DNA from: Paecilomyces variotii
Taxonomy: Eukaryota
Assembly (NCBI GenBank): GCA_004022145.1
Contig: RCNU01000016.1
Strand: one strand, 5' to 3'
DNA length: 64,000 nt
The position numbers and the translations under genes were made by a program. How positions within the stretch are numbered: position 1 is the stretch's first letter; each line of letters begins with the position of its first letter. Positions 1-42,774 of the stretch are shown piece by piece. Under the pieces are notes generated by a model. The model was not told where the DNA came from, made no database searches, and was given only the letters and a program-made list of their open reading frames with translations.

Positions 1-403
1 AAGATAAAGGGTTAACTATTATAATAAAGAGTCTAACTAATATAGAAAAAGGTTTATATTAAAGAGATTTAATAATAAAGAGTTTATATAAGTAAGAAAA
101 TAATAGAGTATATATTATATTAAAATAAATTACTAGCTTTTAATAAAATAGTAATCTAGAGCTTATTTATATTTTAAACCTTAAGTATTTCTTAGCTTTA
201 TTTTATATAAATTCTAAAAGCAGAGAATATAGGGTTTAATTAATTACCTTAATATTATATTTAGATTTAAGGCTTTACTATAGTTCTATAAGCTTATACC
301 TTAATAAAGAGCTAGAGGTATAATAGTATTCTCTCTCTTTTTAAAGGCTTATTCTTAAGCTATTATAAAGTTATTATATTAAATATAAAGTATAGCTTTA
401 TAG

Positions 404-732
404 TATAGTAGGGAGAATTAGTATAAAGAATATAATTAGTTAAGAGATTATATGCTTTTACTTAAAGTCTTTAAAAGGTCTATAAATAAAATAAGAGAGG
501 AGGAGGAGAATACCCTTTTAGTTATTTAGAATAAAATAATTAGCTTTTCCTTTCTATTATTATTCGGTATTAGTTTAATATTAGATTATTATTAGTTTAT
601 TATATCAGTTTATAGCTAGAACTTCTTCTCTAGCTCTACTCTAAGCTCTAAAGTTAAATACCCTTCTCTTTCTTCTTAATACCTACTTGTTTAAAGACTC
701 TATACTAAGTCTTAATATATCTTCTTATAACA
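404..732 (+). repeat. 5' LTR of A1
   Basis: TATAGTAGGGAG...CTTATAACA (RIP form of TG...CA), matches 10316-10644. Confidence 0.95.
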
Positions 733-735
733 AAT

Positions 736-753
736 TAGAGCTAAATATAGGGG
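736..753 (+). promoter_or_regulatory. Primer binding site of family A
   Basis: 3 nt after the LTR. Combining copies (24435 TAGAGCTAAACGCGGGGG, 49407 TAGAGCCGAATATAAGGG) reconstructs TGGAGCCGAACGCGGGG, complementary to a tRNA 3' CCA end. Confidence 0.75.
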
Positions 754-1276
754 GTATTAAAATATTAAATAAAAATAAGGGAGAAAGAAAAATTAGAAGC
801 TAAGGTTAAGGCTAAAGCTAAAAAAAGGGGTAAAAAATAATAGAAAGATAAGTAAAATAGCTAAAAAAGATTACTATTATAAATAAAAAAAGATAAATAT
901 ATTTCTTAGATTAGTAGAGATAGCAAATATAATATAGGGCAAAAATATATATTAATAATAAGAGAAAGAAAGGACTGCTAAATATAAGGAAGAGCTTAAT
1001 AAATATAAAAGAGAAGTAGAAATTTAGAAGAAATAAGAAATTATTAAGCAAGAACTATTTATTAAAAAATAGAAGAATTTCTTACTATTATCTTTATTAT
1101 TATTCCTTTAAAAAAATATAGAGAAAAGTATTAATCTTTTTAGTATTAGTTAAGATAGAAGGACTTTTAACTCTTTAATATTATTAGGTCTAGAGGTATA
1201 AACAGCTTAGGCATTTAAAAATATAGGATTATTAATAGCGCAGCTAATCTAGGTTATATTAGCTTTATAGATACTA

Positions 1277-3493
1277 ATGCCTAAAAATCCTAGGGTATTA
1301 TATTTTAAAGAGAATAATATTACTTATTATCTAAGACTTTTTAAGAGGCTATATAAGGCAAATTAACTCTTAGAAAAAGAAAAAACTAAATGGTTTATAG
1401 ATTATTATAGCCTATTAATATTATTATAAATAAGTACTTAATCTAAATATAAAGAAAAGAATTATCTAAAATTAGTAAAAATAATTAAATAAGAGTATAT
1501 TTATTATAATAAGTACTAAAGAAAATATAATATCTAATAGCTAAAAAGGTTTAAAAATATAAAATATAATAGCTCTAAGAACTTAAAAGAGTATAATTAA
1601 GAATATTAAGCTATATTAAAAGCGCTAGTAACTTTAAATAAGTTAAGTCAATATTTATAGAAAGTTTAATATCTTTAAAGATTTTTAAAAAAGCTTAAAT
1701 AATAAATAGTTTAAGAGTTAAATATAGACTACTATACTTTATTTACTATTAAATATATTAATTTCTATAAGGAGATAATAGATAGAGTAAGAATAACTAA
1801 AACCCTTTACTACCTTAATAGCAATAAACTAGAGAAAGATTAAGATATAATAGCTTTAATAAAGGAGAAGGTAATTAAAGAAGATAATATATAACTTCTT
1901 ATTAAATTTAATAGAATTTACCTAAATAAGAATAAGAGTAGGACTAAATAATAAAGTATTAAAGTAAAGTTAATAAAATAATTATAGATTAATTAGTTAA
2001 TAAAAGAGTTTAAGAAGTTAAAATTATATAATATATAGTATATAGGGAGGCTTAATAGTAGTATATCTAATACTAATATAAATATATAAGCTAGGGCGCC
2101 TTTAAGATTTAACCTAATTAGAGGATTTAGAATATTTCTAAACTTATATAACTTTTACTAGGCTTTTAATTATATTTAATCTTATTACTTAGATTTAAAA
2201 AGTCTTCTAAATTAAAAGCTTATCTATTAAGAAGAAGATTATAAACTTTACTTTAAGCTAAAAGAATAGAATAGAGAAGTTATTTATCTTATATAGGGGA
2301 ATATATTATAAAAAAAAATTATTAAATAGAGACTAAAGGAAGAGTAAAAGAATATTAGCTTAATTAGGTATAATATCTAGTTAATTATACTAGGACAGCC
2401 TAGGGATAACTTAAGCTCTAAGGAAAAAGCCGGGGATATTATAGAAAATTATTACTTTATTAATATAATAGGATTAAATAAGCCTTAAGGAGTAAAGAAA
2501 AGGTAAAGCAGGATTAAATAATTATATAAAAAAAAGCTATAGAAAGTAATTAAATAAAAATAGAGATTTCCTTTAATTAAGATAAACTAATTTAGCAATT
2601 ATTAGCCTTTAAGTATAACTAAGAAAATAAAGATAATTAAAGAGAAAATAAAAAATATACCTAAATAAAGTAAGAATAAAAAGGTTATTAAGATAAAAGA
2701 GAAGCAGAAGTTAAAAAGGTTTAAAATTATAGATAAGCTAAAAGGGACTACTAATATAATAGGGGTTATAAACTAAATACTAGATACTAGAGTTTAAATA
2801 TTAATTTAGGACCTTATCGGTCTATCTCCTAATTTATACAAGGCTTTATTTACCTTATAACTATAGTAAGTAATAATAAAGGCGATATTCTATAATACTA
2901 AAGGAGTATAGTTTAATGCCTCTATATTAAATATAAAGTATATAGTAAATAGTGCGGATTAGTATACTTATATATCTTTATAACTTAAGCCTCTTAATAA
3001 AAATAAGGTATTATATGCGGCTATAACTCTAAAATTACTAATTAAAATTAATAGTTATAAGAAAGCGCGAAATATTATAGTAAATAGTAGAGCTAAAATT
3101 AATATAATATATAGAGATATAATAAATTACTATAAACTTATTATAAGCTAGAAATTTAGAGGTAATATAATATTAGCAGATAGCAGGTAGACCCCTTTTA
3201 TAGGTTTTTATAAAGAGATACTTATATAGATAAGATCTTTTTATTATAAGATCTCTTTTTTTATAGTAAATAATAAGATTAACTATAATTATATTTTAAG
3301 ACAGCCTTTTAAGTATTAAATATATTTATAATATATTGCTTTATTAAATAGGATAATAAAGAGTATAATTTACTCTATAGACTAAAAGAATTAAGCTATT
3401 ATTTAGGTATTTTTAATAGATAATCTAAGAAATAAGTTAAGAGAAAAGGTATTATACGATTTATTATTCTAAGTATAAGAATTATTAAACTAG
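1277..3493 (+). pseudogene. gag: gag-protease ORF of A1 (RIP-inactivated)
   Basis: De-RIP reading MPGNPRALHFEGDNVTHYL... Aspartic protease motif IVDSGAEIN at about 3077-3103 is in the same frame. True start may be slightly upstream. Confidence 0.75.
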
Positions 3494-6400
3494 AGCTAGA
3501 AAAGAATAATAGATATTAAACTAAGAATAGAAAAGGCCTATAGAAGTTATACTTAGTAAATAATATTAGCTTTAGAGTAAGTAAGGAAATTAAAAATAAA
3601 GGAGTAAGGATATTTAAACCTACTAAATTAAATAAAGGAGTTAGAAAGTTATAGAGATATAAACTGTCTAAAAGATATAACCTTTTTATTATAAAAATAA
3701 AATATTTTATTAATATATAGTATAAGAAGAAATATAAAAAGGTTTATCTAGTAAATATATTAAATAGACCTATAGCGGCTCTAGGGGGGTTATTAGAATA
3801 GAAAAAAATTATTAGGGAGTATTATTACAAAAACTTCTAAAGAAGTATAAAAGAAATATATAGAGAATTTATTAAATATATCTAGCTAAAAATATTAAAT
3901 ATTAAGAAAGGAATAAGATTAATACTAAACTGTCTGAAGAATCTTATTATAGGTAATAATTTATAGCTAAGAGAGAAAGAACTATTAATAGAGGTGTTTT
4001 TTACTTAAAAAGCAGTTTTTGCCTAAATTTTTAAAGAGATTAAATAAATATGCCTAGAAGTTGCACCTCTAATTATTATTTAAACTATAGATTATAAACT
4101 ATAATAAATAAAGAGCTTTTTAATACTAAAGGCATTCTATAGCATAATATAAGAAATAGTAAAAGAGAGAATAAATGCGGGGATTTTTAAATATAGTTAA
4201 GAATCTTATTAAAATCTATAGTTTCTAATAAAAAAGAAAAATAATAAATATTAGCTAATTAATATAGCTATAGAAGTAAATTAAGTAATAATATAAGATA
4301 TTAATCTGCCCCCTTTAGCTAATAAGTTCTTAGAAGAGTTTAGTAGAATGCTAGTATTAATATTTATAGACTTATTCTCTAGATATAATTAGTTAAAGTT
4401 AGCTGAGAAATTGCGGGACTTAATAGCTTTTTATATATTAGAGATTAGTTTAGTTTATTAAGCTAAACTATCTTAAGAATAGATAAATATAGTATAGGAG
4501 TTTATATAAGAAGTTATATAAGTATTAGCAGATAATATTCTTAATATTTATAATATATTTCTAAATAATATATTAATATAAGGACCTAAGACTAATTATA
4601 AGAGAGAAGAGATACTGCTAGGAATTAGAAGGTTTATATTTAAATATATCTAGAATATTAATAAGGTATTATATAGTCTTAAACTTATAGGTTTAATAAT
4701 TATTAGGGAGAAATTATAATTTACAGTATTAGGAATTAAAATAGTAAGCTATATGTATAATATTAAGGGGAGATATTTTAAGTCAGCTAAGGTAATTAAG
4801 ATTTTAAAGTAGCTATTTTATTAAAACTTATAAGAAGCGAGAAAATTTCTAGGGGTTATAGCCTATTACTAAATATAGATTAAAGAATATACTATTAAAG
4901 CCGAGCCGATATACTTAATATTAAGAAAGAGATAAGACTTCCTTTAAGGGCTAAAATAATAAGAAATAATAAATACTTTAAAAGTGGCCCTAATAATAGT
5001 ACTAGTACTTAAGCTAATTAACTATAGAAAGGGAGGCATAATTATTATTAATATTAATGCTAATAGTAGCAGATAAGGGGCTTAACTTACTTAAGAAGAA
5101 AAGGAGTTTAATAAGAAATACCTAGCTAAATATAAAAGTAAAGTATAGATATAGGTAAAGAGATAATATAATAAAGGAAAGCTAAAGTATAAGGCAGTAT
5201 TAAAGGCGCTTTATAAATTCTAAGTATACCTATATAGTATATATTTTTAACTAGAGATAGATATAAAAATTCTAGTAATATAATTAAATAGAATAGTTAT
5301 AGACCTCCTTAGGTTAGTAATTACTTAATAAATTGCTTAAATTCAGTTATTTAATTTTAATATTATCTATATATTAGAAAAAAAGAACTTAGTTATAAAT
5401 AAGTTATCTTAGAAGCTAATAATAGAGTAAGACCTAGAAGAGGTAGAAGATAATAATATAAAGAAATTCTTAGACTTATAGTTTTATATAATCTATTATA
5501 TTAATATATAAGAGGTAGAATTAAACAGTATCCCTTAGTTAATACTTATATTATATTAGTTAGAAAAGTCTTTATTAATTATAGAATAGTTATAAACTAT
5601 AATAAAACTAGATAATATAGATAAAGGATAATATACTAAGTTTAAGAAAGAGGCCCTAAAGTATATAGTCTAAGATAGTATGCTTTTCTAAAGAGTATAA
5701 TAAAATTAGCCTTATTATATAATTGTTAATAATAAGGAGAAGTAAAAGGAAATTCTTATAGCCCTTTATAAAAAGCATAAATATTATAAGTATAAAGCGA
5801 CCTATTAAAAGGTAGCTAATTAATATTAATAAAAAGGCCTATATAAGTATATTATTAAATAGATAAAAATATATAATAAGTATTAAAAAGCAGATAAAGA
5901 ATATATAGAAGAAGCTTTATAGTTAATATTTATTCTACTAGGAAAATTAAAGTTATACTTAGATATTTATAAGATTATACTGCTTAGTAAGAGAAAGACT
6001 TATATTACTATACTTTAAGATAACTTTAGCTAAATTAAATATAAAGCCCTTAGTAGCTTTATTTTAGGAGCTATTACTAAGTTTCTATAAGAAGACTAGA
6101 TTTATTATTAGAGAGTAATAAAGACTTTTATTAATAATAGAGAACCGGAGAATAAAGCTATAATTAATATATTAATATAGAAGTATAAGATTAATTATAT
6201 TAAAGTCTTACTATATAACCTATAAGTAAATAGAGCAGTTAAAGTTATATATAAGTCCTTTATATATAATATCAGAAAATTTATAAAAAGAATAAAGATA
6301 AATTAAATAAACTACTTACCGGCAGTAATCTGGGCGAATAAAAATATAATTAAGACCTTTATAAGCTTAATATTATTTAGAGTAATTATAGGATATAATA

Positions 6401-6948
6401 CTATATTGCTAATTAAACTAAAAGTACCTATCTAGAAAACTTTAGCATAGGATAAAGTTAAGACTATAGAAAATCTTCTATTCTTTTATATATAATAGAT
6501 AGAGCTCTAAGATTAAGATATAAAAGAGGCTCGACTTTACATCTAATATATAAGGGAAGCTAGTAAAGAAATCTTTAATAATAAGAAATAGCTCTGTAAA
6601 GAATAATTAATAGAAAAATAGCTTATTTTACTTTATAATATAAAGCTTAAGATATCTTACTCTGCAAAACTAGTATACTACTAGCTTAGACTATATAGAA
6701 TTAAAAAAGTTCTTAGGAAAGGATTTTATAAGCTTAAGGAGTTAGATAATATATCTTTTAAGGACCTAATTTATAGGAATTACTTAAAAGGCTACTATTT
6801 ATAAAAGGACTAAAATAAAATATTAACTATAAGAGATAATATAATATCTAAGTAAGAAAATTAGCAACTAAATAATAATAATAATAATATAGACTAGATA
6901 CTATCTAGATTAAAATATATAATTATAGTTCTAATACCCTCCTTCTAA
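3490..6948 (+). pseudogene. pol: pol (RT-RNase H-integrase) of A1 (RIP-inactivated)
   Basis: De-RIP motifs NPWFLVKKK, LINAA, DLFSGYDQ, FLDD at 4558-4569 (GAT retained in copy 3 at 53234), TDAS, then integrase core, ending DWIPP...PSF*. Confidence 0.9.
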
Positions 6949-7433
6949 AAATATTAGCTTAAAAGAAGAGAAGTAGAAAGCTAGCAGTAAAATAAGATAA
7001 AGAACTAGTTTAAAAGGAGAAGAAATAAAAAAATAATAGTAAAATAAGTACCAGTACTATAATAAGAAGAAAAGGAAAATAAATTTAAGATAAGGGCGTC
7101 TTTTTTAGGGAAGGGGAAAGATTTAAAAATGCCTAATAATGATTAAGAAAGAAAAAAAAGAGAGATAACTAAAAAATATGTGATATTAGCTTAAATATCT
7201 TAAAAAAGTCTATAAATAAAGCTAAAAATAGAAAATATTAGATAAAGAATATAAGCAATAAATAAAGAATCCTTATCTTATTATAAAAACCTTATTTTTT
7301 ATATTATATAATATTACAGCAGAAGTAACTAGAGACTAAATTAAGCTAAACTTAACCCTATCTTACCTTTTAAGTATATCTTTTTACTTAAAAACTATTT
7401 CGAAGAGTTACTTTATAAAGATATATATTGAAA

Positions 7434-10258
7434 ATAGAAGAAAATATATTAGAAATATAAAATATTATTTATTAGAATAAAGCTCTTTAACTTAGAATAT
7501 ATATATATACTATAATTAGCGAAATTTATAAGCTTATAAAGGAAATAATAAATAAGGCTAATAATAAAGAAGAGAAGGTTTAGTTTATAAGTAATATAGC
7601 AGTAATTATTTTAAATTTTTAAAGTAAATATAATAAAGCAGCTAGTAATTTTTATAATTTCTTAAACTAATAAGAGCTGTTAGAAAAAGTAAGAAAGAAA
7701 AAAATATTAGCTATTAATAAGCTAAAAGAATTAAAAATATAAGTAAAAAAGAACTATAAATATACTAATAAAGGTTATTATAAAGCTATAGAGAAATAAG
7801 GCTAGAAGATTATAGATTAAGTCTTATTAATTATTAGAAAGTTATATTAGACCTTAATAGCTATAGGAGAATTAGCTTTTAATACTAAAGATTAGAGAAT
7901 AGCGGCTATATATTTAGCAAAAGTATAGGTTAATAAACTTTATAATATTAAGAGATAAGGAATACTAACTAAAAAGAGCCTTTAACTAATTAATATTAGA
8001 AAGATAAAAGATATCTTAAGAAAAGCCCTTAGTAGAGAAGGACTAATTTTTTAAAAACTTATTAATAAAGAGCTATAAGAGATTAAAATAAGAGTAAGAA
8101 AAAATAATCTTTTAGAGAAGATTATAAAAGAAGAAGAAGGATATTAGATAAAAGATTTAGATAAAAGCTTATTAGTAGATCTAATATTAGATAAAGGAGA
8201 GGAAAGTATAAAAAAGAAGAAAAAAGAGAAGAAGAGGATTAAAAGTCCTAAAAAGCTAAAAGGGGAAAAAAAGCTTAAGACTTAAGATAAGGGGAAATAG
8301 CTAAAAAAGAATATAAATATAAGGTTAGCATATCTATATTAATAAAAAAGGCTATTACTAATTTAAAAGGCAAAGAAATATTAAAACTTTTAAGAGAAGA
8401 AAGAATTAAACCCGCTATTATATACTAAGTTTATATTAAAAAAATATAAAGTATAATAGGACTAAGGAGTATAAAAAATAATATTCTTAAAAAAAGATTA
8501 AAAATGCTTATAGATAATAATAATAACTTTAAATCTTAGAATATTAATATAGACTACTAGAAATAGTTTTAATAGGAATAGAGACTTAATACTAACCTTA
8601 AGGATTATTACTGCCTAGATAAGGGGGAAACTAAAATATAGTCTTAGCTAAATAGACTAAATATAAGCACTAAAGAGGTTAGAGAAGTCTTATAGTAGGT
8701 TAATTCTAAGAAGATTAACTTAATCTATAAGCCTTATATATAATTATTGGCTAATATAATTAATATAAGGGAGAATATATCTATAAAAGAAGCTAGAAGA
8801 GTATTAAAAGTAGTTAGAAATATAAAGCTAGTAGTAATAAAGCAGTAGAAGAAGGGATTATTTAAAATAATAACCTATTCTTATAAAAGTTTGCTTAAAG
8901 AAACTAAATAGTTTATAAATAAAATCTCTAAAGATAAATAGGCAATAGAATCTCTTAGCAGAGCCTTAAGAATTAATATAAAGACCTCCTTTTTTATAGT
9001 AAACCTAGAAGACCCTTTTATTAAAAAAAAAACTGGGCATTTAAAAGATATATAAAATGCTAGAACTATATAGTTTAAAGATAATATAGAGGCTAAGTAG
9101 ATACTAGATATACCTAATAATAGCTAGGTTAAAGGAAGAATAAAGAGTCTTATTCTAAGAAGTCCTAAAAGTATAAAAGATAAAAATAATATAGAAGTTA
9201 AAAAATTATTATCTAAAGATCTTCTCCCTAAGAAATCTTTAGTATTAGAGATAGTTTAACTGTTTAAAGATCTTAGGTTAATTAATACAGATACTTCTAG
9301 TAATATATCTAGTAGCTTATACTATAAAGCCTAAGATAACCTATATAGAGCTAAAGAGTATCCTAAATCTAAATATAGGGATAAAAAATATTTTAACTTA
9401 AGTAAAGAAGACTTTACCCTAAATAAGATATAAGACTAATATATTTAGTTAAGTATTATAATAAGAAAGGATTTTAACTGTTAAGAAGTAAATAGAGTTT
9501 TCTAGATTATACCCTTTAAAGGGAAATTAGTAAAAAAAATACTATAATATACTATTATAGAAGCAAAAACAGCTCTTTATTATAAAAAGGAGAATAAAGG
9601 ATTAATAGGGCTTAAAAACTTATCTAGAAGTATTCTCTAAAAGGTTATTATATAAGATATCTAGATTTATTTAATCTAGTTAGCGCTATATAGTTATAGT
9701 AAATATAGACTGCAGATCTAATATCTTAGGGGATATAAGCTAAGAGTATTAAATATAGAGACTGCTATTCTTAAGGGAGAAATAGGCTAGAGCTTTATAA
9801 CCCTAAGGACTAGACTAATTACTAAAAATAAGTTTAAGGAAATTATAGGCCTAAGAGATATTATATTTAAGTAGAGAGAAGTAATCTTTATTAGTAATTT
9901 ATATTAGCTAATATTAGAGAATTAGGGAATAGATTTTAATAGTATCTGCTGTTTTAATTATAGGGAGTAAGATAAGATAAGATCTAATTAAGGAGGATTT
10001 AGGCCTTTTAATATCTAGGTAAATAGAGTTATAGTTATAGGCAGAGCGATACTTAGTTAGCTGAACTAGAATTGCTTAGAAGTTAAAACAGAGCTATACT
10101 TTATATTAAAGTAAGATATATTATTAGTTTAAGATTATCTATAGAGGAAAGAAACTTAACTTTATAAGTTAGGGGTTTTAAAATATATATAATATTAAAA
10201 ATTAAAGTATTCTTGCTTTAGGAATAATTTATAGTATTAGAAGGAGGAGATAGTATAG
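7434..10258 (+). pseudogene. Extra ORF3 of A1, about 940 codons, with a C-terminal degenerate dioxygenase-like domain
   Basis: One reading frame in copy 3 (56104-58929, 942 codons); internal stops read as TAA/TAG. Copy 1 has a 1 nt deletion near 8305. Start codon is inferred. Confidence 0.7.
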
Positions 10259-10315
10259 ACTATAATAACTAAAGAAGATAAATAAGGGTATCTACTCTTA
10301 GAGAAAGGGAGGCTA

Positions 10316-10644
10316 TATAATAGAGAGAATTAATATAAAGAATATAATTAGTTAAGAGGTTATATACTTTTATTTAAAGTCTTTAAAAGGTTTATAAATA
10401 AAGCAGGAGAAGAGGGGAAAAATACTCTTTTAATTATTTAGAATAAAATAATTAGCTTTTTTTTTCTATTATTATTCAGTATCAGTTTAGTATTAGATTA
10501 TTATTGGTTTATTATATTAGTTTATAGCTAGAGCTTTTTCTCTAATTCTACTCTAAGCTCTAAAGCTAAATACTCTTCTCTTTTTTCTTAATACCTACTC
10601 GCTTAAAGACTCTATACTAAGTCTTAATATGTCTTCCTATAACA
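10316..10644 (+). repeat. 3' LTR of A1
   Basis: Preceded by polypurine tract AGAGAAAGGGAGGC, ends CCTATAACA, followed by TSD ATAG. Confidence 0.95.
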
Positions 10645-13600
10645 ATAGAAGTTTATAGTATAATAAGTAAAGGAGCTTCTTACTATCTTTATAGTAAAAG
10701 GTTAAGAAATTATATAAGCTAAGAGTATTATTTATATAATATTATAAGGTTAAATTTTTAATCTTTAGTAATTATCTTCTTACTTTCTATTATATATAAC
10801 TCTTAGTCTTAAATATTTAAATAATAATTTAAATGCGTTTTTAAGAGTATAATAGTATTAATAGTATAATAGCTTAAATAATTTTAAAAGATTAGCTACT
10901 TTTTATTTATTTTTAAAACTTCTTACTTTAAGAATAAATTATCTTAATTAATTATATTAATATCTACTAATTTAATTAAACTATAGGTTTTAAGATCTGT
11001 TTTATATTACTCTTATATAGTAAGACTCTTTAAATAATTACTTTAATTAAGAATTTATATAATATATATTAATTTTATTAGTATTAATAGCTTAAAGAAG
11101 TTATTTCTCCCTTTAAAAAGCTATTCTCTCTTCTTATATCTCTTATAGAGGATATAGCTATTATTATTAAAATATAGCTAAATTTAGTTATTAATATAAT
11201 ATTAGATTATAATCTCTTAATTACTACTAAGATATTAAAGACTTTAATTACTATTATAATATTAAAGAGATTACTTTTTTAATTAAGTATTACTTCTTTT
11301 ATAGCTATTAATAAATTAATATTTTTATTTACTTTAAATCTTATTAAAGATTTATTAGCTAAGATAAATATTATACTAAAATTAAAATATAATTAGTTTA
11401 TACTTTTATTAAAGTAATTTTTTCTTATAGTCTTAATTACTATATAAGTAAGTCTTTTTAATTTAATAGTAGCGCTAAAAAGCTTATTAAAGAAAAAGAG
11501 AACTTATTCTATTATTAAGCTAATTACTATAATTAAGCTAAAGATAACTTTTATTTATACTATAAAAAAGTCTTAGAGATAAAATATAAAGTATAAGGAA
11601 ATTATTAATATAAGAACTTAGATTAAACTAGTTATTATTAAGACGCTAATTAAAATTATTATTATTATTATTATTACTAATATAGTAATAGAAAATAGTC
11701 TTACTATCTTTAAACTAAGTAAAGAATTTTCTCTAATTTGTTAAAAGATATACCTTTACTATTTAAAAGAGTTAATTAAGAATTTAGTACTTTAATATAC
11801 TTATACTAATATTAATATTAAGTATAATTATTATAATTATAAATATAAGCCTTATATTTTAATCTTATTAATTTATAAAAATAAGCTTATTTATTTATAG
11901 AGCTTTAATTAAAAGGCTTATTTTTTAAGTAATTATAAGTCTTTTAAAAAAGCTTATAGTAAGTATAAATTCTTTATAAAAGTATATTTATATAAAGCGC
12001 CTATTAAGGCAAATATAAATAAGCTTATATTTACTATTTTATTAACTTTATCTTTATATAAGTAGTTTATAATATAGCTTTAATAAGAGTTACTTAAATT
12101 ATTTTATTTAATAGTATTAAATCTATAGTATATATAAGAAATTATATATATTATTTATAATATTTCTTCTTTTTTTAATAAGGAGAAAAATAAATCTATA
12201 CTAATAAAGTTTTATAATAATAAAATAAATAAGTAAGAGAAATTAATCTTAAGCCTATATTTTTAGTTTTTACTAGAGATAGCCTAGTTAAAATAAATTT
12301 ATTTCTAAGTAAATTAGCTTCTTATATTCTTATTAAAACTTTTAAATCTTTATAAATAAATAAATAGAAAAAGAGTAATATAAATTTAATAATAAAATAA
12401 TTAAATAAAACTTAAAAATCTAATAAGAAAAAAGAGAAATTTTATTAGTTTTATTAACTTCTTCTTTTAAAGCTTCTTAAAGCCCTTCTTAAAAAAGTCT
12501 TATTAATAGCTTATACTATTATTATAAAATAAGGTATTAAGACTTAGTAATAAGTCTTAGAGTATAAGAAAATAAAGGAAGAAAAGAAAAGCTTTATTCT
12601 TTAAGGCTTAAAATAAAGTTAAAGAAAAAGCTTTAATAGTAAAGTAATATAATAAGTAAAAGCTGCTTTATTATTAAACTAATATTAAATAATAATTAAA
12701 AGGAAAACTGCTTATTTTATTTTATATTAACTAACTAATATCTTTTTTACTTTCTCTCTATTTTATTAAAAATATTTAAGCTATTTCTTTTAATAATAGT
12801 ATATAACTTACTAATTTAATTATATCTTTAAAACCTCCTTAATTACTATTTTTCCCTACTATATAACTTTCTCTCTTTTATATATAAATGCCCTTATTTA
12901 CTTCTCTTTAATACTGTAATTTACTTAATTTTTTTCTATTTATACTATAAGTTTCTTTTAAAGTAAGAATATTCTAATATTTTATATACTTTATATTTAG
13001 TAATTATTAAGCTTATAAGCTATTATTATTAATTCTATAAGAAAAGCTTAATAGATTATTTATCTTAAATAAGAATAAAATATAACTTTACTTATACCTC
13101 TATAAAGTCTTATAAAGCTTACTTAAAAAGAGCCTTTTTAATAATAGTTATTTTATAGATAAGAAGATTAAATAGGCCTTTTTTTCTCTAGTCTTTATAT
13201 ATTCTGCTAATTTCTTTATAATTAAAGAAGTAAATAGTAATTATATTAAAGCTTCTCTTCTTTAATATTATTATTCTCTAGTTATTAAATATTAATATTT
13301 ATCTATACTTTAAAGTATAATATTTTAATATTATATAAAGGGAATATCGGGTAAAGCTTAGCGTAGCTAAGCTTTTCCCTAAACTTCCCTTAAAGTAATT
13401 CTTTAATCTATAGAATTACTTTAATAAAGTAAAATTACGCATATAAGAAAACCTATATAGATAGTTATATTCTCTTAGTTTAAAGAAATATATAATCTTT
13501 TATAAATAAAATTATATTTAGTAATATATTATACTAAGGCTTATTTTAAAGTAAGCTAATAATAAGTAAAAACCTATAAAGCTATATTTTACTATATTAA

Positions 13601-18690: not shown

Positions 18691-18928
18691 TTAAGAGTTT
18701 ATTATCTCTTTAAAGATATTATTATAATTAGAAATAAATAAAGAAATAATAAATATATTAAAAGAGAAAGTTATAGCTAAATAAAATATTAAAAAGCTAG
18801 TAGAAATTATTTGTTTTAATTAATTATTTATAATAACTATTAATAACTTTAAGCAGTAAGATAAAGTATTATTAATATAAGGAAATATATAATAAGAAGA
18901 AAGTATATCTATAAGAAAAAATATCTAT

Positions 18929-19186
18929 TAATATAGAAAAGGTATTAATAAGAAGAATAGTATAAGAAGCTATATAAGAACTTAAGCTATAAGGTATAAC
19001 TAGGCATAGAGAATAAAAGTATTATAGAATAACCTAGTACTATATAAATAAGACTATAATATATATAATGCTAAGAAATAAAGAGGTATTAATCTAAATA
19101 TATAATATATAGTTAAGGGAATAAGCTAACTATAGCTCTAACTATATAATATTATTATATAATATAGTTATAGATTCTCTATAATA
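18929..19186 (-). repeat. 3' LTR of C1
   Basis: 258 bp, aligns with 47427-47682. Confidence 0.9.
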
Positions 19187-19324
19187 TATAACTAAAGCTT
19201 AGTATTAGTATCTCCTGCTAATATTAGAAAGAAAGAAAAAAATATAATAAATATTATAAACTAGTACTAGTAATAAGAGAAAAAAGATAAAGAAGAGATA
19301 ATTAAAAAAGCATATATAAATCCT

Positions 19325-22300
19325 CTAATAATAATTATTCCTTAAGCTTAAACTTATAAAGATTATATTATTAATTAAGTATATAGAAATAAGAGCAGGT
19401 ATTAAGATAATAATATTAATACTATACTCTTAATAGTAGAAGTATAAATTCTTCTTAAAGATATATTTCTTAACTTTTTATATAAGCTTTATAGCCTTAA
19501 AAGCCTTAATAAAAGCGCGCTATCTCTAATTATAGATATATCTCCTACCTTTTTTATAGCTCTTAGTTATAATAAAGAGCTCTGCTTAAATTATAAGATT
19601 AATCTATTAAACTCTCTTTATAAATATATTAGAGATATTTTTTAAGCCTATAATTAGAATAGCTACTAGAAATATATATAAAATAGTAATATATTAATTT
19701 ATAAGCCTAGATAGAGAAGTAATCTTAGAAATAAGGTCTTAATATATTATAAATAGCTATTTCTATATCTTAGCCTTTATAATATTAAGAGTTTAATAAT
19801 TCTTTTAAATCTTAATATACTATAAGAGAAGAGTATACTTAATATATATAGCGGGTCTTATTAATCTATATAATAATATAAAATATATAATATAAGTATT
19901 AAATATATAATATATCTTATTAATTTAATTTATACTAAAGTCTTAAGTATTTTAATATATAAATATCTAGTTATTTATATAATAAATAAAGCTAGCTAAT
20001 ACTAGTCTATACTTCTAGATATAAGGCTATTATTCTTTAAATTTCTAATATATACCTAGGAGTATCTATATATAGTTTCTCGTATTCTTATAATTAAGAG
20101 ATATATTACTTTAAATTATTATAGAACTATAGTTATATTAAATTAAGTCTAGAATATTTATATTAATATACTAAAAGAAGATAAAATCTCTAAGCCTTAT
20201 ATATTTTATATAGTAAGAATAAGCAATTAAATACTAGTTCTTATCTAGCTAATATATAATATACTATAGATAATAAGCAGGGTCTTAATATATAATTTAC
20301 TATATAATAGAGTAATATATAGCTTATAGTTATTTTAAGTTATTTTAATTACTTATCTTATGCTAGTAGTATATATATATATTAAACTCTTTATAAGCAA
20401 TTAAAGAGATAAATAGCTAGTTAATATATATAGAGCTTATTAAGATTTTCTTTTATTAAAATATTAATCTTAAGATAATAAGTAAATTAAAAACTACTTA
20501 TTTTTACTTTATAAAACTAGCTTTTAGCTCTCTTTATTATAAATATAGTAAAATACTAATTATATTTATTAAGAACTCTTAATCTAGATCTTAATATTTT
20601 TAAATAATTAATATTACTATTTATACTAAAATATATTAATAAATACTTAAAGTATCTTTAAATTAAATAAAATAGAAGTCTTAATAAAACTAATAATAGT
20701 AAGAAATATAAAAATCTCTCTAAGTTAGTAATAGTAATTATAGAGACCTTTAATATATATATAAATAAGCTAGTTATAATCTAGACTATAGGTCTATATT
20801 TTAGCTTTTAAAGCTAAGAGCTTTATATATATAAAATAGATATACTTATTTAATATAGTAAGGGCAGCCTTTATTTATTCTATAAGTTTTATAAGCTTAA
20901 TATCTAAGATCTTAACCCTCTTACTAATCCTCTAGTAAATACTCTTAAATAAACCTTAATACCTATATCTTATTCTAGATATTTAAGATATTTTTAAAAA
21001 GGTCTTATTTATATTATTAAGATTACTAAGAATATCTATAGACTTAATAATAAATTACTTTATTATAATAGCAGCAGCGGCAGTATTTTAATACTTATAT
21101 AATATTAGAGAAGGAGAGCTTAGTTTTAATTAGCCGGGGGATTTTATAGATAGTAACTTATAAAATCCTAGTAAATTAAGAGTCTTACTAATTCTAGATA
21201 GAATAAATAAGATTAATAGTATTCTCTAAGGTATAATAATATCGCGAGGTATAATTATACCTGTATAAGGTAATAAGAAGCTATTACTACTTCTAACTTA
21301 AGGCTTATATACTAAAGATATTAATAACTATAATAAATATATTAGAGATAAAATTATTATAGATAATCTTAGAGATAAGGAGATTTTTTATAGTAGAGAT
21401 TATAGTTTAACAAGGATAGATAGGCTAAAAGGATTATACTCTATTTATAAGCTTTAAAGCTCTATCTATAGGATTAGATAAAGATCTTAAAAGGAAAGAA
21501 GGTTATTAATATTAGCTAGCTATAGGGTTTTTTTAGAACTTTTCCCTTTATTAAAATATAAGAGCCTATTAATTATAACCCTATTTAATATATAGATAGT
21601 ATCTTTAAAAGAATTAGTATTCTTTATAAAAATAACTATATATTTAGCTATTTATTTAGAGTTAATATAATATTATATAAGCTCTATATTCTTAGAGCCC
21701 TACTTATTTATAATATTTCTCTTTATATTCTTAATTTATCTCTTTCTATTACTAACTTTCTTATAGATAGCCTTAATATTTTTAAAGTTATTCTAAAATT
21801 ACTTAGCACTAATAGTATATAATTAAATTTAAGAGGATTTAATATACTCTTATAGTTATATAAAGAGATTATCTATAGCTTTATAATTCTAGTATAATAT
21901 AATAGCTAGCTGAAGCTAACAGCTATATTAAAGGGTTATTAATTACTAGTTAATAAAGCTAATAGCTTCTTATAGAAAAGAGAACTAGATATTATTAATT
22001 ATTAAAGTATTATCTTAGCTAGTTAGTATAAGCGCAGGCGCAGTAAGGTAAGGAGCAATTTAATAGTATAATATAGTTATAAAGAAGTAAAGTAAGAGAA
22101 GCAGAATAATAAAAGAAATTATTTAATAAGAGAAAAAAGAGAATATACTTACTAATAAAATAGTAAGATTCTAACCTCTTTCTACTATCTCTAACTAGAG
22201 CTAGAATTAATTATAGTCTTCTTAAAATAGTAGAGAATAAAAGATAAATCTAATAGGTATTTTATTAAGTAATAGGCAGGTAAATAATAATTCTCTAAAA
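19325..22300 (-). pseudogene. Extra ORF3 of family C with a C-terminal PhyH-like 2OG-Fe(II) dioxygenase domain (19439-20392)
   Basis: One frame over 20392-19439 reads after de-RIP EFDMY..LGWLRAMYHS..QQIVRQDPAYY..RPD..YPYY..PGD.TFFRHID.N..IQG.VSLD.E..NCT.ILPGMH..EWW..LPHGSTGPA..RT.LPW..ISDALVGR..FGKNSYF. Outer ends approximate; possible intron (GTAAGT) near 22150. Confidence 0.75.
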
Positions 22301-22489
22301 TAGTAGTAATAGTAAGCGTAATAAAATAATTAGCTTAAGGGTTTAAAAAGAGTAAAAAAGAAAAAAAAAATAAGAACTTAAGATATAGTAAGATATTAAA
22401 TTTACTATATATAAATTTACCGCTTAGAATAAATTCCTAAATAAGAATAACTATTATTATATAGATTTAGCTAATTAAATAGCTTTATT

Positions 22490-24099
22490 AATTAGAATAA
22501 GTTAGATTAATAATTATAGCTATATTTTATTTAAATAGAATCTAGTCCTCTGCCGCAGCTTTAGCGTCTATATTGCTTAATCTAGCCCTATTATCTTTTT
22601 ACTTATCTTTAAATATATAGTTTATCTTAATAATACTGCTTATTTTAAAGGTATTATCCCCCTTATTTAAAAAGCTAATAGCCTTATTAGACTTAGAGAT
22701 AAAGCCCTTTAATTAATTCTTACTAATAATTCTATTTAATAGTATACTATTTAGCTCTTTAAGATAGTAAAATCCTAAATTCTGCAGAACCTTATATATA
22801 TAATATAGGCTAAGCTAATAAAAGGCTAGTTTATTTAAATAAGATATATTATTCTCCCTTTATATATTATAAAGCAATACTAGAGACTTATTCTTAAGCT
22901 CTTTAATATAGATATTATAATAGTTATTAAAATATTCCTTATTTTACTTATATATATACTCTAGATATATAGCTACTTCTTTAAGGTCTTAATTATATTA
23001 TTTTATCTAATAAGCTCTTATAGTAAATAAGTTAGCAGTAGTTTAAATAGTCTTCTATAGAAATATAGACTATATAGAGATTTCTAGGTTAATAAGTAAA
23101 ATTGCTTCTTAACCTATAAATAGGTAATATAAAGTTATACTAGTACTTATATAAATAATATAATAGTCTATAAGTAGTATTACAGGTAGGTATTAGAGCT
23201 ATCTTTTACTAGTTCTATTTATTATTTTAAATAATATATCTTTAATAAGATAATATCTTAATTCTATAATACTATTTAATTATAGGTAATATAATAAGAT
23301 AGAGATCTTCTTAATACTATACTTAATAATAAGAGCTTTTATTAAGGCTTAATTTTCCGGCTCTTTATTTTAATTCTTTAATAATTTTAAGAGGTAGATT
23401 AAAATAGTAAAAGATATCTTTCTATAAAAACTTTATAATTATATTTAAAATAGCTATAGTAAAAGTATAAGTTTTTACCTATTTAAATAGGCTATTCCTA
23501 AGGATAATAAGAAAGTTCTTATTATAATCTAGGGGTATATAGACTATATTAATATAAACCTTAGCCTATAGTATTAATAGCTATATTAAGTATAATACCT
23601 TTTCTTACCTATCTAATTCTTGCAGTTAATATAGGAGATAAGTCTTAATATAATATTTTATATTAAGGTATAGGCCTAGCTATTAATAGCGAGCTATAAT
23701 TTAATAATTTATATCTTCTTTTCCTCTATAATTATATTCTTTATATATTATATATAAGATTCTCTCTCTATTTTTTTTATTATTAATAACCCTATATAAA
23801 GATATATTCTTACTTATATAGTAGAATAGATACTAATCTTTAACTAAAAGTTTTAAGGCTTTCTTTTAGAACTATTAGAATTCTCTTATTAATATACTCT
23901 AAGACTTTTCTAAAATTATTAAGTACTTAGTAATATACTCAGATTCTTTAGAATAGGAAAAATTAAGAATATAAACTTTTTCTTTAGCTTAAGATATAAT
24001 TATATATATAAGTATAATATATATAAGAAAGTAACTTAGCTAATCTTAGATAAAGTTATTTATATCTTTTTTAGTATTTACTATTAGCCCTATTAAGAA
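22490..24099 (-). pseudogene. pol: C1 pol 3' part (RNase H end, integrase)
   Basis: Integrase-like reading ending EDWIP...IAVII, similar to the family A tail; cut at 24100 by A2. Confidence 0.75.
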
Positions 24100-24103
24100 A
24101 TAG

Positions 24104-27100
24104 TATAGTAGGGAGGATTAGTGTAAAGAATGTAATTAGTTAAGAGGTTATATGCTTTTACTTAAAGTCTTTAAAAGGTTTATAAATAAAGCAGGAGAAG
24201 AGAGAGATAATACCTTTTAGTTATTTAAAATAAAATAATTAGCTTTTCCTTTCTATTATTATTTAGTATTAGTTCAGCATTAGATTATTATTAGTTTATT
24301 ATATTAGTCTATAGCTAGAGCTTCTCTTCTAGCTCTACTCTAAGCTTTAAAGCCAAATCCTCTTCTCTTCCTTCTTAATACTTACTCGCTTAAAGACTTT
24401 ATACTAAGTCTTAACATATTTTCTCATAATAAATTAGAGCTAAACGCGGGGGGTATTAAAATATTAAGTAGAAATAAAGAAGAAAAGAGAATTAAAAGCT
24501 AAGGTTAAGGCTAAAGCTAAAAAAAGGGGTAAGAAGCAGTAAAAAGATAAATAAAATAGCTAAAGAAGATTACTACTATAAATAGAAAGAGATAAATATA
24601 CCTCTTAGATTAGCAGAGATAGTAAATATAATATAGGGTAAAAACGCGTATTAATAATAAAAGAAAGGAAGGACTACTAAATATAAGGAAGAGTTTAGCA
24701 AATATAAAAGGGAAGCAGAAATTTAAAAAGAATAGGAAATTATTAAGTAAGAACTATTTATTAAAAAATAGAAGAATTTCTTATTATTATCTTTATTACT
24801 ATTTCTTTAAAAAAAATATAGAGAAAAATACTAATCTTTTTAGCATTAGTTAAGATAGAAGGACTTCTAGCTCTTTAGTATTATTAAGTCTAGAGATATA
24901 GATAGCTTAGGCATTTAAAAACATAGGACTACTAATAATATAACTAATTTAAGTTATATTAGCTCTACAGATACTAATGCCTAAAAATCCTAAGGCACTA
25001 TATTTTAAAGGGGATAATATTATTTATTATCTAAGGCTTTTTAAGAGGCTATATAAGGCGAATTAACTCCTAGAAAAGGAAAAAACTAAATAGTTTATAG
25101 ATTATTATAGCCCGTCGGTATTATTATAAATAAGTATTTAACCTAAATATAAAGAGAAGAACTACTTAAAATTAGCAGAGGCGACTAAATAAGAGTATAT
25201 TTACTATAATAAGTACTAAAGGAAATATAATATTTAATAGCTAAAAAGGTTTAAAAATATAAAATATAATAGTTCTAAGAATTTAAAGGAGTATAATTAA
25301 GAATATTAAGCTATATTAGAAGCGCTAGTAACTTTAAATAAGTTAAGCTAATATTTATAGGGAGTTTAATATCTTTAAGGACTTTTAAAAGAGCTTAAAT
25401 AGCAAATAGTTTAAGAGTTAAATATAGACTACTATATTCTATCTACTATTAAATATACTAATTTCTACAAGAAGATAGTAAATAGGGTAAGAATAATTAA
25501 AACCCTTCGCTATTTTAATAATAGCAAACTAGAGAAAGATTAAGATATAATAGCTTTAATAAAGGAGAAGATAACTAAAGAAGATAATATATAACTTCTT
25601 ATTAAACCTAATAGAACTTACCTAGATAAGAATAAGAGTAGGACTAAATAATAGAGCATTAAAGTAAAGTTAATAGAGCAGTTATAAATTAATCAGTTAA
25701 TAAAAAAGTTTAAGAAGTTAAAACTATATAATATATAATATATAGGGAGGCTTAATAGTAGTATATCTAATACTAATATAAATATATAAGCTAGGGCGCC
25801 TTTAAGATTTAACCCAACTAGAGGATTTAGAATATCTCTAAACTTATATAACTTCTACTAGGCTCCTAATTATATTTAATCTTATTACTTAGATTTAAAA
25901 AGCTTCTTAAATTAGAAGCTTATCTATTAGGGAGAAGATTATAAACTTTATTTTAGGCTAAAAAAATAGAATAGAGAAGTTATTTATCTTATATAAAAGA
26001 ATATATTATAAAAAGAGATTATTAAACAGAGATTAAAGGAAGAATAAAAGAATATTAGCTTAATTAAGTATAATATCCAGTCGATTATACTAGGATAGCC
26101 TAGGGATAACTTAAGCTCTAAAGAAAAAGCCGGGGATATTATAAAAAATTACTACTCTATTAATATAATAAGATTAAATAAGCCCTAAAGAGTAAAAAAA
26201 AGGTAAAGCGGGACTAAATAACTATATAAGGAAAAATTATAAAAAGCAATTAAATGAAAATAGAGATTTCCTTTAGTTAAAACAAATTAATTCGGCAATT
26301 ATTAGCCTCTAAGTATAATTAAGAAAGTAAGGATAATTAAAGAGGAAATAAAAAATGCGCCTAAGTAGAGTAAGGATAAAAAGGCTATTAAGATAAAAGA
26401 GAAATAAAAGTTAAAGAGATTTAAAATTATAAATAAGCTAAAAGAGACTATTAATATAATAGGGGTTATAAATTAAATATTAAATACTAGAGTTTAAATA
26501 TTAATTTAGGACCTTATCGGTTTATCTCTTAATTTATATAAGGCCTTGTTTATCTTATAACCGCAGCAGGTAATAATAAAAGCAATATTCTATAATATTA
26601 AAGGAGTACAGTTTAATGCCTCTATATTAAATACAGAGTATATAATAAATAGTGCGAATTAATGCACTTATATATTCTTATAATTTAAGCCTCTTAATAA
26701 AGATAAAGTATTATATATAGCTGTAACTCTAAAATTGCCGATTAAAATTAATAGTTATAAGGGGATATAAAATATTATAGTAGATAGTAAAGCCGAAATT
26801 AATATAATATATAGAGATATAATAAATTACTATAAACTTATTATAAGCTAGAAATTTAGAGGTAATATAATATTAGTAGATAGCGGGTAAACCCCTTTTA
26901 TAGGTCTCTATAAGAAGATACCTATATAGGTAAAATCTTTCTATTATAAGGTCTCTTTCTTTATAATAAATAATAAGATTAACTATAATTATATTCTGGG
27001 ACAGCCTTTTAAGCATTAAGTATATTTGCGGCATATTGCTTTATTAAATAAAATAATAAAGAGTATAATTTACTCTATAGACTAAAAGAATCGAGCTATT

Positions 27101-30100
27101 ATTTAAGTATTTTTAATAGATAATCTAAGAAATAAGTTAAGGGAAGAGATATTACGCGATTTATTATCCTAAATATAAGAGTTATTAAACTAAAGCTAGA
27201 AAGGAATAATAGGTATTAGACTAGAAATAGAGAAAGCTTGCAAGAGCTATATTTAATAAATAATATTAGCTTTAGAGTAAGCAAGGAAATTAAAAGTAAA
27301 GGAATAGAGATATTTAAACTTACTAAATTAAATAAAGGAGTTAGAAGGTTATAGGGATATAGACTATCTAGAAGGTATAACTTTTTTACTATAAAAATAA
27401 AATATTTTATTAATATATAGTATAAGAAGAAATATAAAAAGGTTTATTTAATAAATATATTAAATAAACCTATAATAGCTCTAGAAGGGTTATTAGGATA
27501 AAAAGAAGTTATTAGGGAGCGCTATTATAAGAATCTCTAAAAAAGTATAAAAAAAATATATAGAGGATTTGCTAAATATATCTAGCTAAAGATATTAAAT
27601 ATTAAGAGAGAAATAAGATTAACACTAGACTATTTAAAGAACCTTATTATAGGTAATAATTTATAGCTAAAAGAGAAAGAACTATTAATAGAGATACTTT
27701 TTACTTAAGAAGCAGTCCTTGCCTAAACCTTTAAAGAGATTAGATAAATATATCTAGAAGTTATACCTCTAATTATTATTTAGACTATAGATTATAAATT
27801 ATAGCAGGTAAAAAGCTTCTTAATACTAAAGGCACTCTATAATATAATATAAGGAATAGTAAAAGAGAGAATAAATACAGGGATCCTTAAATATAATTAA
27901 GGACCCTACTAAAATCTATAGTTCTTAATAAAAAAGAAAAGCGGTAAATATTATCTAATTAATACGGCTATAGAAGTTAATTAAGTAATAATATAAGATA
28001 CTAATCTGCCCCCTTTAGCTAATAAGTTTTTAGAAGAGTTTAATAGAATGCTAGTATTAATGCTTATAGACTTATTCTTTGGGTATAATTAATTAGAGTT
28101 AGTTAAAGAATCGCGGGACTTAATAGCTTTTTATATGCTAGAGATCAGTTTAGTTTATTAAGCTAGACTATCTTAAGGATAGATAAATATAGTATAGGAG
28201 TTTATATAAGGAGTTATAAGAGTACTAGCAGATAATATTCCTAATATTTATAATGTATTTCTAAATAATATGCTAATATAAGAACCTAAGACTAATTATA
28301 AGAGGGAAGAGATACTGCTAGAAATTAGAAGGTTTATATTTAAATATATCTAGAATATTAATAAGGTACTATATAGTCTTAAACTTACAGGTTTAATAAT
28401 TATTAAGGAGAAATTATAATTTGCAGTATTAGGAATTAAAATAGTAGGCTATATATATAATACTAAAGGAAGATATCCTGAGTTAGCTAAGGTAATTAAG
28501 ATTTTAAAGTAGCTACTTTATTAGAACTTATAGGAAGTAAGAGGATTTTTAGGGATTATAGCCTATTACCAGATATAGATTAAAGGATATATTATTAAAG
28601 CTAAGCCGATATACTTAATACTAAGGAAGGGATAAAACTTCCTTTAGAGGCTAGAATAATAAAAAGCAATAAATATTTTAAAAGTAGCCCTAATAATAGT
28701 ATTAGTACTTAAGCTAATTAATTATAAAGAGAGAAGTATAATTATTATTAATACTAATACTAGTAGTAATAAATAGGGGGCTTAATTTATTTAAGAAAAA
28801 AAGAAGTCTAATAAGAGACACCCAGCTAAATATAAAAGTAGAGTATAGATATAGATAAAGAGGTAATATAATAGAGAAAAGCTAGAGTACAGGGCAGTAT
28901 TAAAAATGCTTTATAAATTCTAAGTATACCTATAGTATATACTTTTAATTAGAAGTAGATATAAAAATTCTAGTAGCGCAACTAAATAAAATAGCTATAG
29001 ACCTTCTTAGGTTAGTAATTGCTTAGTAAATTGCTTAAATTTAGCTATTTAACTTTAATATTATCTATATATTGGGAAAAAAGAACTTAGTTATAGATAG
29101 GTTATCTTAAAAGCTAATAATAAAATAAGACCTAAAAGAGGCAGAAGATAATAATATAGAGGAATTTCTAGACCTATAGTTTTATGCGGTCTATTATACT
29201 AGTATATAAGAGGTAAAATTAGATAGTATCTCTTAGTTAATACTTATATTATATTAGTTAGAAAAGTTTTTACTAATTACAGAATAGTTATAAATTATAA
29301 TAAAATTAGATAATATAGATAGAGAATAATATACTAAGTTTAAGAAAGAAGCCTTAAAGTATATAGTCTAAGATAGTATGCTTTTCTAGAGAGTATAATA
29401 AAATTAGCCTTACTATATAGTTATTAACAATAAGAAAAAGTAAAAGAAAATTTTTATAGCCCTTTATAAAGAGTATAAATATTATAAGTATAAAGCAACT
29501 TATTAAAAGGTAGCTAATTAATATTAGTAAAAAAGCCTATATAAGTATATTGCTAGATAGGTAAAGATATATAATAAGTACTAAAAAGCAAATAAAGAAC
29601 GCATAGAAGAAGCTTTATAGTTAATATTTATTCTACTAGGGAGATTAAAGCTATATTTAAATATCTGCAAGATTATACTGCTTAATAAGAGAAAGACTTA
29701 TATTACTATACTTCGGGACGACTTTAGCTGGGTTAAATATAGAGCCCTTAGTAGCCCTACTTTAAGAATTATTGCTAAATTCTTATAGGAAGACTAGATT
29801 TATTATTAGGGAGTAATAAAGATATTTATTAATAATAGAGGACTGGAGAATAAAGCTATAGTTAATATATTAATATAGAAGTATAAGATTAATTATATTA
29901 AAGTCTTGCTATATAACCTATAAGCGAATAAAGCAGTTAAAGTTATATATAAGTCCTTTATATATAGTATTAGAAAATTTATAAAAAGAATAAGAATAAA
30001 TTAAGTAGATTACTTACCGGCAGTAATCTAAGTAAATAAGAATATAGTTAAGACTTTTATAGGCTTAACACTATTTAGAGTAATTATAGAATATAATGCT

Positions 30101-34845: not shown

Positions 34846-34849
34846 ATAG

Positions 34850-37325: not shown

Positions 37326-37330
37326 ATATT

Positions 37331-37485: not shown

Positions 37486-37487
37486 TT

Positions 37488-37498
37488 TTATTCTCATT
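37488..37498 (+). promoter_or_regulatory. Self-priming PBS (Tf1/sushi type)
   Basis: TTATTCTCATT is the exact reverse complement of AATGAGAATAA at 37445-37455 in the LTR; no TGG tRNA PBS. Confidence 0.75.
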
Positions 37499-42760: not shown

Positions 42761-42774
42761 ATTTGCGTCAAATA

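Follow-up and report, generated by a model that had tools for sequence, protein, structure and literature searches.

A third gene killed by repeat-induced point mutation in a family of LTR retrotransposons of Paecilomyces variotii, with a probable counterpart in a related element

We analyzed a 64-kb stretch of the Paecilomyces variotii contig RCNU01000016.1 (hereafter the window), a block of fungal repeats degraded by repeat-induced point mutation (RIP), and focused on an open reading frame (ORF), ORF3, that follows pol in a family of long terminal repeat (LTR) retrotransposons (family A). The segment 9490-10258 encodes the conserved C-terminal domain of ORF3 (~935 codons), a genuine third gene that lies between pol and the purine-rich tract and 3' LTR of the first copy (A1). 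The likely overall explanation is that ORF3 was a genuine third gene that was killed by RIP, that the same gene is very probably present in the tail of a second element (family C), that it was neither shortened nor catalytically dead, and that it encoded an accessory protein. The features of family A that bear on this are the following.

398-10670, 24100-34850 and 49069-59341, + strand: copies A1, A2 and A3 of family A (self-BLAST extents)
404-10645, + strand: copy A1 from LTR to LTR, 5' LTR 404-733 and 3' LTR 10316-10645 (self-BLAST, LTR ends and flanks)
7450-10258, + strand: ORF3 of A1, ~935 codons with many RIP stops, start approximate (fewest-stop frame and three-copy RIP-corrected comparison)
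9490-10258, + strand: conserved C-terminal domain of ORF3 in A1 (translations, database matches)
~9617-9710, + strand: C-terminal motif 1 in A1 (NLSRSIL..QD..YL..LAL plus a RIPed GHGEHR); motif 2 (..AIG.A..W..[AT]ELYF) ends at ~10117 and the tail motif lies at ~10208-10246
32400-34517, + strand: last 706 codons of ORF3 in A2, with 48 in-frame stops
56872-58986, + strand: last 705 codons of ORF3 in A3, with 48 in-frame stops

Family A comprises three copies of ~10.3 kb that are 88-89% identical (self-BLAST). Pairs of 330-bp LTRs were found in all three (89.7-92.5% identity within a copy), as was a purine-rich tract abutting the 3' LTR on its upstream side. An alignment of the three copies over 10778 columns contained 8507 identical, 713 C/T, 1011 G/A, 14 other, and 533 gapped columns; that is, 1724 of the 1738 variable columns were C/T or G/A. 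Since the differences between copies are nearly all of these two kinds, they carry the signature of RIP, and all three copies are inactivated by it. A guanine-plus-cytosine content of 14-25% likewise speaks for RIP. Variants of the A1 region in public sequencing runs were likewise nearly all transitions (run X1: G>A 185, A>G 100, C>T 92, T>C 71, and 6 transversion places). The sites still polymorphic among the copies were mostly CpT/ApG (389 and 622) and less often CpA/TpG (187 and 129), possibly because the preferred CpA sites had already mutated in every copy.

A sequence-only reading of the window had described an ORF after pol that is common to all three A copies, and this was borne out by both the stop counts and the three-copy comparison. 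Over the last ~705 codons, the ORF3 frame contained 56, 48, and 48 stops in A1, A2, and A3, respectively, versus 87-114 in the remaining frames. In-frame stops at about half the number of the other frames indicate a genuine gene. ORF3 is read in a frame that differs from that of pol, the two being separated by a ~500 nt spacer with no clear frame, and a 1-nt deletion near 8200 shifts the ORF3 frame of A1 relative to A2 and A3. Its translations consist of conserved blocks parted by Lys/Glu-rich and Ser/Pro/Glu-rich stretches. The C-terminal strings that had been quoted for family A are present in the raw copies, and the same motifs occur in intact database relatives.

These relatives were found with a profile of the three C-terminal A translations (stops as X), which was searched against 1.84 billion (1.84e9) representative proteins and yielded 13 matches at E <= 1e-3, seven at E <= 1e-10, and two at E <= 1e-30 (best E = 8e-102; lengths 54-340 amino acids). 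Every named match was a hypothetical protein of P. variotii, and the remainder came from Logan assemblies. A word-indexed search with intact members returned nine proteins, all named ones being from P. variotii, and word-indexed protein searches using the RIPed A queries gave nothing, or KAJ9316302.1 only. The named family members are listed below with the handles used here.

P. variotii ORF3-family proteins: P0003, KAJ9316302.1; P0005, KAJ9305871.1; P0010, XP_028486980.1; P0011, KAJ9300951.1; P0016, XP_028482054.1

These five proteins belong to the same family as the ORF3 of A, with the common motifs NLSRS-x-LQK-x-I-x-QD, YL-x-WLAL, DQGG-x-GPFD, GVTAIGKA, and AELYF; they differ from it in being gene-model fragments of 103-340 amino acids, shorter than ORF3 and known here as protein sequences alone. 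Compared with copy A2 over 261 aligned positions, P0003 was identical at 160, RIP-derivable at 89, and otherwise different at 12; because 249 of the 261 positions are identical or RIP-derivable, P0003 is a fragment of a far less mutated family A copy. Seven proteins (P0005, P0006, P0008, P0010, P0011, P0013, and P0014) align over 9490-10258, and the distant members (these seven together with P0021 and P0022) carry NLSRS-x-LQK-x-I-x-QD-x-x-x-YL-x-WLAL, G-x-G-[ED]-H-R, DQGG-x-GPFD, GVTAIGKA, and AELYF. We also used a RIP-aware score, in which a codon mutation matrix for C>T / G>A changes is applied to the emissions of the family profile and a stop is treated as one more symbol. By this score, a profile of database proteins alone reached 77-160 bits on the ORF3 of A1 versus 11-13 bits off-frame. 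On these matches, ORF3 is a member of a small protein family without a known domain, the named members of which are so far from P. variotii only, and the window itself would most likely derive from P. variotii or a close relative. No full-length intact ORF3 was among the database matches (all 54-372 amino acids), which counts against the overall explanation.

Two of the gene models look chimeric. In P0021, motif 1 occurs twice in succession, and in P0022 the ORF3 core continues into ...PGPNHRVADGLSR..., which we take to resemble a pol motif of gypsy-type elements. Such models would fit nests of transposable elements in other P. variotii strains.

A fourth carrier of ORF3 was detected on the minus strand of the window, outside the three A copies.

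12867-13544, - strand: diverged C-terminal fragment of ORF3 (A-profile hidden Markov model (HMM), 49.9 bits, E = 2e-16)
12517-12851, - strand: A-like LTR adjoining this fragment, 66-74% identical to the A LTRs

The database-only HMM also matched here (13313-13059, minus strand; 38.7 bits, E = 1e-12), with reversed decoys reaching at most 0.4 bits, and RIP-aware profile scores were 74-113 bits overall and 105-113 bits in a subset of the tests. Among P. variotii proteins, the fragment is close to the P0021/P0010 type, and upstream of 13544 nothing recognisable was found. It ends directly at an LTR, so that two element lineages that have clearly diverged carry ORF3 at the same position, immediately ahead of the 3' LTR. 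The proposal that this element group has ORF3 as a true third gene holds for family A and for the fragment at 12517-13544.

The main alternative to an accessory protein of the element is a captured host gene. More broadly, rather than belonging to the element, ORF3 might have been a host gene, captured or neighbouring, or what is left of a different element that was nested before the family spread. Such an origin would accord with the annotation of the relatives as ordinary hypothetical proteins, with the lack of relatives outside one species among the named matches, and with the frame-less spacer of ~500 nt between pol and ORF3. However, the place and orientation of ORF3 are constant: it ends shortly ahead of the purine tract and LTR in family A and in the fourth fragment, and probably does so in C as well. 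P. variotii also has several diverged sub-types of the gene, which would be expected if it evolved along with a diversifying element family, and no internal LTR remnant was found, the sole similarity being a 32-nt match within the shuffle range. We therefore consider an origin outside the element improbable.

We next turned to the claim that the ORF3 of A is a shortened homologue of that of C and lacks a His-x-Asp (HxD) motif. The distance from Q-D-x-x-x-Y-L to AELYF was 138 residues in A2, A3, and the three-copy posterior, 227 in C, and 108 in P0021; A1 is outside this count, as it reads TELYF and is not matched by the pattern. A core about 90 codons shorter in A than in C agrees well with the 89 codons measured (138 vs 227). 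That A has been shortened does not follow, because the intact relative P0021 has only 108 residues; C is the length outlier, and A is not a trimmed version of it.

At the site after LAL, intact relatives read YGHGEHR (P0006), FGKGEHR (P0005), FGRGEHR (P0010), HGDGDHR (P0014), and FGEKNHC (P0021). In family A the site is YSYSKYR or YNYNKYR, and its codons are TAT AGT TAT/TAC AGT AAA TAT AGA. Every departure of A from the YGHGEHR of P0006 requires no more than one or two transitions (G>A or C>T). As these codons are the transition products of YGHGEHR, the His residues of A were lost to RIP in dead copies and not in a living pseudoenzyme. It is correct that no HxD is visible in the raw A sequence, but its His-bearing motif was erased by RIP, so the absence says nothing about the ancestral protein. 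A conserved HxD was not found across the ORF3 family, in which the site reads GHGEHR, GKGEHR, GRGEHR, GDGDHR, or GEKNHC, and any HxD read in C is a guess because C is RIP-saturated and its core has no reading frame.

These observations bear directly on the idea that C encodes an enzymatic ORF3 with an HxD motif and that what A retains is a shorter pseudoenzyme that lacks the motif and serves in binding. The 89-codon difference between two conserved motifs and the missing His at the G-x-G-x-H-R site of the raw A copies are what this idea would predict. Nevertheless, the A codons are plain RIP products of Y-G-H-G-E-H, the site itself varies among relatives, the spacing in P0021 is smaller than in A, no enzyme family matches any member of the ORF3 family, and the RIP-saturated C core offers no frame for comparison. 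We consider this idea very unlikely, and the pseudoenzyme part of the sequence-only reading is not supported: the loss of His is a RIP artefact at a site that is variable in relatives.

Whether ORF3 extends to family C depends on the region after the pol of that element, which is split by nested insertions as follows.

18928-47703, - strand: whole family C element, split by nested insertions (LTR pair 86% identical; pol pieces collinear with A)
Parts of this element, - strand: 3' LTR 18928-19210; post-pol region 19211-22567; pol to 24099; copy A2; pol 34851-~37300; element B ~37300-45180; further part ~45180-47425; 5' LTR 47426-47703
19211-22567, - strand: post-pol region of C, the claimed C ORF3 (no clear reading frame, 16-22% GC)
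20267-20359, - strand: best match of motif block 1 in C, ends *DPAYYL (16.0-16.4 bits, best of three frames)
19436-19720, - strand: motif block 2 and tail motif in C; block 2 ends at 19565 (16.7-17.0 bits), AELF at 19585-19574, tail at 19483-19436 (12.1 bits)

The pol of C is collinear with that of A, and the post-pol regions are of nearly equal length (3387 nt in A and 3357 nt in C). The family C strings that had been lined up by eye with family A map to ~20400-19430 on the minus strand. When two motif blocks built from database proteins only were placed in C (three frames, 3.49 kb), their best matches shared one frame and lay in the right order, 234 codons apart; block 2 ended 118 codons from the LTR, and both blocks fell at the sites that had been named from the sequence (ends 20267 and 19565). 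Only one of 250 column-permuted profile pairs gave this configuration. The tail block, with 16 positions modelled from the A copies, scored 12.1 bits at its site in C, which ranked first of 3443 positions, and 5 of 39380 background positions reached this score. Moreover, the spacing from AELF to the tail is 32 residues in C, exactly as in A, and ~31 in the fourth fragment (counted on the translation). From the arrangement of these sites, the last ~300 codons of the C post-pol region are quite probably homologous to the C-terminus of the A ORF3.

Numerous results weigh against this homology. A tblastn search of the A ORF3 against the C post-pol region gave a best E of 0.14, and HMMER scores of the A, mixed, and database-only profiles were negative there, with 12, 181, and 115 of 300 shuffles reaching them, respectively. 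The RIP-aware profile scored 14-26 bits in all frames of the region, like off-frames and decoys. In the tile test on the last 1300 nt before the C LTR, 56 of 80 (A-based) and 23 of 80 (database-only) null tiles scored at least as high; in the pol control, none of 83 did. The region has no clear reading frame, unlike the pol of C. A global DNA alignment of the A and C post-pol regions scored 56.5 (decoys 3 to 127.5), and the best site of an ungapped identity scan of A against C lay elsewhere. As for the co-location itself, its spacing windows were set after the data had been seen, and the block scores taken alone were ordinary (reached by 49 and 27 of 250 permuted profiles, and both by 6 of 250).

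These results leave room for a chance resemblance between A and C, in which the 3.4 kb after the C pol would be unrelated or non-coding and pol alone would be common to both. The score tests on the C post-pol region are at noise while the A-pol profile on the C pol gives 123.6 and 83.4 bits by the same RIP-aware method (off-frames 11-23 bits), the region shows no frame signal, and tiles of RIPed background score up to 38 bits by chance. On the other hand, three independent blocks co-locate in one frame, with the tail placed precisely 32 residues on from AELF, the two post-pol regions hardly differ in length (~3.39 kb vs 3.36 kb), and A and C are related elements. Chance alone seems to us unlikely, though less so than an origin of ORF3 outside the element. 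Homology of the C-terminal part thus remains the preferred reading. Of the line-up by eye, the three C-terminal motif sites stood, being in one frame, ordered, and spaced, and every score-based test of it was at noise. An ORF3 common to A and C is therefore probable for the C-terminal part only (one of 250 permuted pairs; tail ranked first of 3443). The N-terminal motifs that had been proposed as common to A and C were not upheld, as the full-length ORF3 profile scored 24.1, 25.9, and 18.2 bits on C, which is noise. Should the two post-pol regions be homologous, divergence in ORF3 would have gone much further than in pol.

Two apparent signals were set aside. A relaxed blastn search gave a collinear match of 10075-10254 with 19597-19421 (64%, 185 nt), which was discounted as many off-diagonal matches had equal or better E; DNA similarity in ORF3 was not counted as evidence, because blastn statistics are unreliable in AT-rich DNA and the other DNA alignments were at noise. 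High scores of a RIP-aware window scan over the GC-richer element B were disregarded, being inflated because the background model is RIPed sequence.

We further searched for a function of ORF3. In Pfam, no match at E < 0.01 was obtained for 10 ORF3-family proteins, and the best E of a PDB search with the family profile was 0.66. The ESM Atlas gave no usable match for residues 100-372 of P0021, and for P0005 one match with a score of 0.75, below lead level. Two AlphaFold models had a mean pLDDT (predicted local distance difference test) of 43.4 and 37.2 and were not used for a fold search because of this low confidence. Nothing in these Pfam, PDB, and Atlas searches points to an enzyme, and ORF3 probably serves the element as an accessory protein without enzymatic activity. 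This role is deduced from an absence of matches. As to mechanism, ORF3 would be encoded by the element in a frame other than that of pol, as conserved blocks joined by charged or low-complexity linkers, and its most likely part in the life cycle of the element itself would be non-catalytic, as a protein that binds nucleic acid, chromatin, or a host factor. None of the copies in the window would still be able to produce the protein.

Beyond ORF3, the A copies retain traces of pol. The pol frame of A3 matched RT_RNaseH at 25.5 bits (cut-off 24.8; E = 1.5e-5), and the matches of A1 and A2 were under the cut-off, with weak matches of A1 near 4970-5280. No integrase (rve) match was found in nine frame translations of the three A copies, in which ~1.65 kb of pol-frame sequence homologous to the C pol continues past RNase H. 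All three copies are flanked on both sides by ATAG (A1: 400-403 / 10645-10649), with the LTR read as T(G>A)...CA. These flanks could be a 4-bp target duplication with a site preference or could have arisen by chance in AT-rich DNA, and they are not decisive as a target-site duplication because the repeat is identical in all A copies. Copy A2 additionally contains a 495-bp insertion (31900-32395) inside ORF3. This insertion is GC-richer and packed with runs of GGTTC/GAACC pentamers and short inverted repeats, and a 135-nt piece of it reappears inverted at 63238-63372, adjoining a second partial copy of family C (63374-64000, 85% identity to 20976-21602).

The window as a whole has a guanine-plus-cytosine (GC) content of 14-29%, apart from 36-40% at 38-45 kb, and its first 20 kb contain no ORF of >= 80 amino acids. 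Its structure includes a three-level nest, in which two insertions interrupt element C, namely copy A2 (24100-34850) and element B (~37300-45180), the latter a much less RIPed Tf2-type chromovirus (36-40% GC). Element B carries a Tf2-1 SH3 domain (E = 1e-14) and a chromo domain (E = 5e-11) ending near 42670, followed by ~2.2 kb without a Pfam match, parts of which are open (97 and 130 codons), and then the 3' LTR. The ORF3-family profiles gave no match in element B.

The public runs containing this stretch of the window comprise genome-sized runs of a single organism as well as food-fermentation and grain metagenomes, which accords with a source in P. variotii or a close relative. Across 6600-10700, all 30 bins were covered by contigs of two RNA libraries (X19 and X20; metatranscriptomic, food-fermentation), possibly owing to DNA carry-over. 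Read 'joints' from 7220-7222 to 10426-10434 had suggested a variant lacking ORF3. They are explained by a local similarity: 7191-7222 resembles the LTR at 10374-10404 (27 of 32 nt match, within the shuffle range) and attracts LTR contigs, giving rise to false depth peaks and false joints, and the joint sides were shorter than 30 nt.

LTR retrotransposons rarely carry extra genes, and those that occur, among them env, silencing suppressors, and demethylases, are often a sign of new biology; plant Ty3/gypsy elements of the Tat/Athila type carry an extra ORF after pol. LTR elements with extra ORFs after pol occur in plants and animals, including bdelloid rotifer elements and the env of errantiviruses (PMC5408684, PMC9289625, PMC13524379). 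The Tat/Athila, rotifer, and errantivirus elements resemble family A in having the extra ORF between pol and the 3' LTR and in its inheritance within an element lineage. Family A differs from these known families in its host, a filamentous ascomycete, and in an ORF3 product that, having no Pfam match, corresponds to none of the extra-ORF families known so far. In the relevant portion of a survey of fungal LTR elements, extra domains are mentioned for nested 'complex' transposons and chromodomains only, and a dedicated third ORF is not described there (PMC3248453). A literature search on third ORFs of this sort in fungal elements gave no relevant paper. For P. variotii, parts of an earlier report state that RIPed retrotransposon copies form AT-rich blocks, that Tn123 is a Tf2-type retrotransposon, and that the species can be transformed and crossed (PMC6300479); such blocks agree with the source of the window suggested by the ORF3 family. 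From that description, Tn123 shares the probable host species and the fate of family A, its RIP-mutated copies building AT-rich blocks, and element B shares its Tf2 type (SH3 and chromo domains) and about the same size class. Compared by description with Tn123 (~7.1 kb; 231,587-238,677), for which those parts of the report mention no third ORF (PMC6300479), family A is longer (10.3 kb), with ORF3 accounting for the difference.

Taken together, these results describe a lineage of fungal LTR retrotransposons whose third gene is uncharacterised. They also illustrate that catalytic residues can falsely seem to be lost when RIP has been at work, as H>Y, G>S/N, and E>K turn GHGEH into SYSKY; calls of pseudoenzymes in RIPed DNA therefore need un-mutated relatives. 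With intact relatives in one species, ORF3 is a concrete and testable candidate. We see about an even chance that a Ty3/gypsy-type clade in Paecilomyces (Eurotiales) carries a conserved accessory gene of ~935 residues, from a wholly uncharacterised protein family, that was kept through at least three lineages (A, the 12.5-13.5 kb type, and C). If true, fungal LTR elements would have gained an extra gene of a sort with hardly any described example among them, and the conservation of ORF3 would imply a role in retrotransposition or in the evasion of genome defence.

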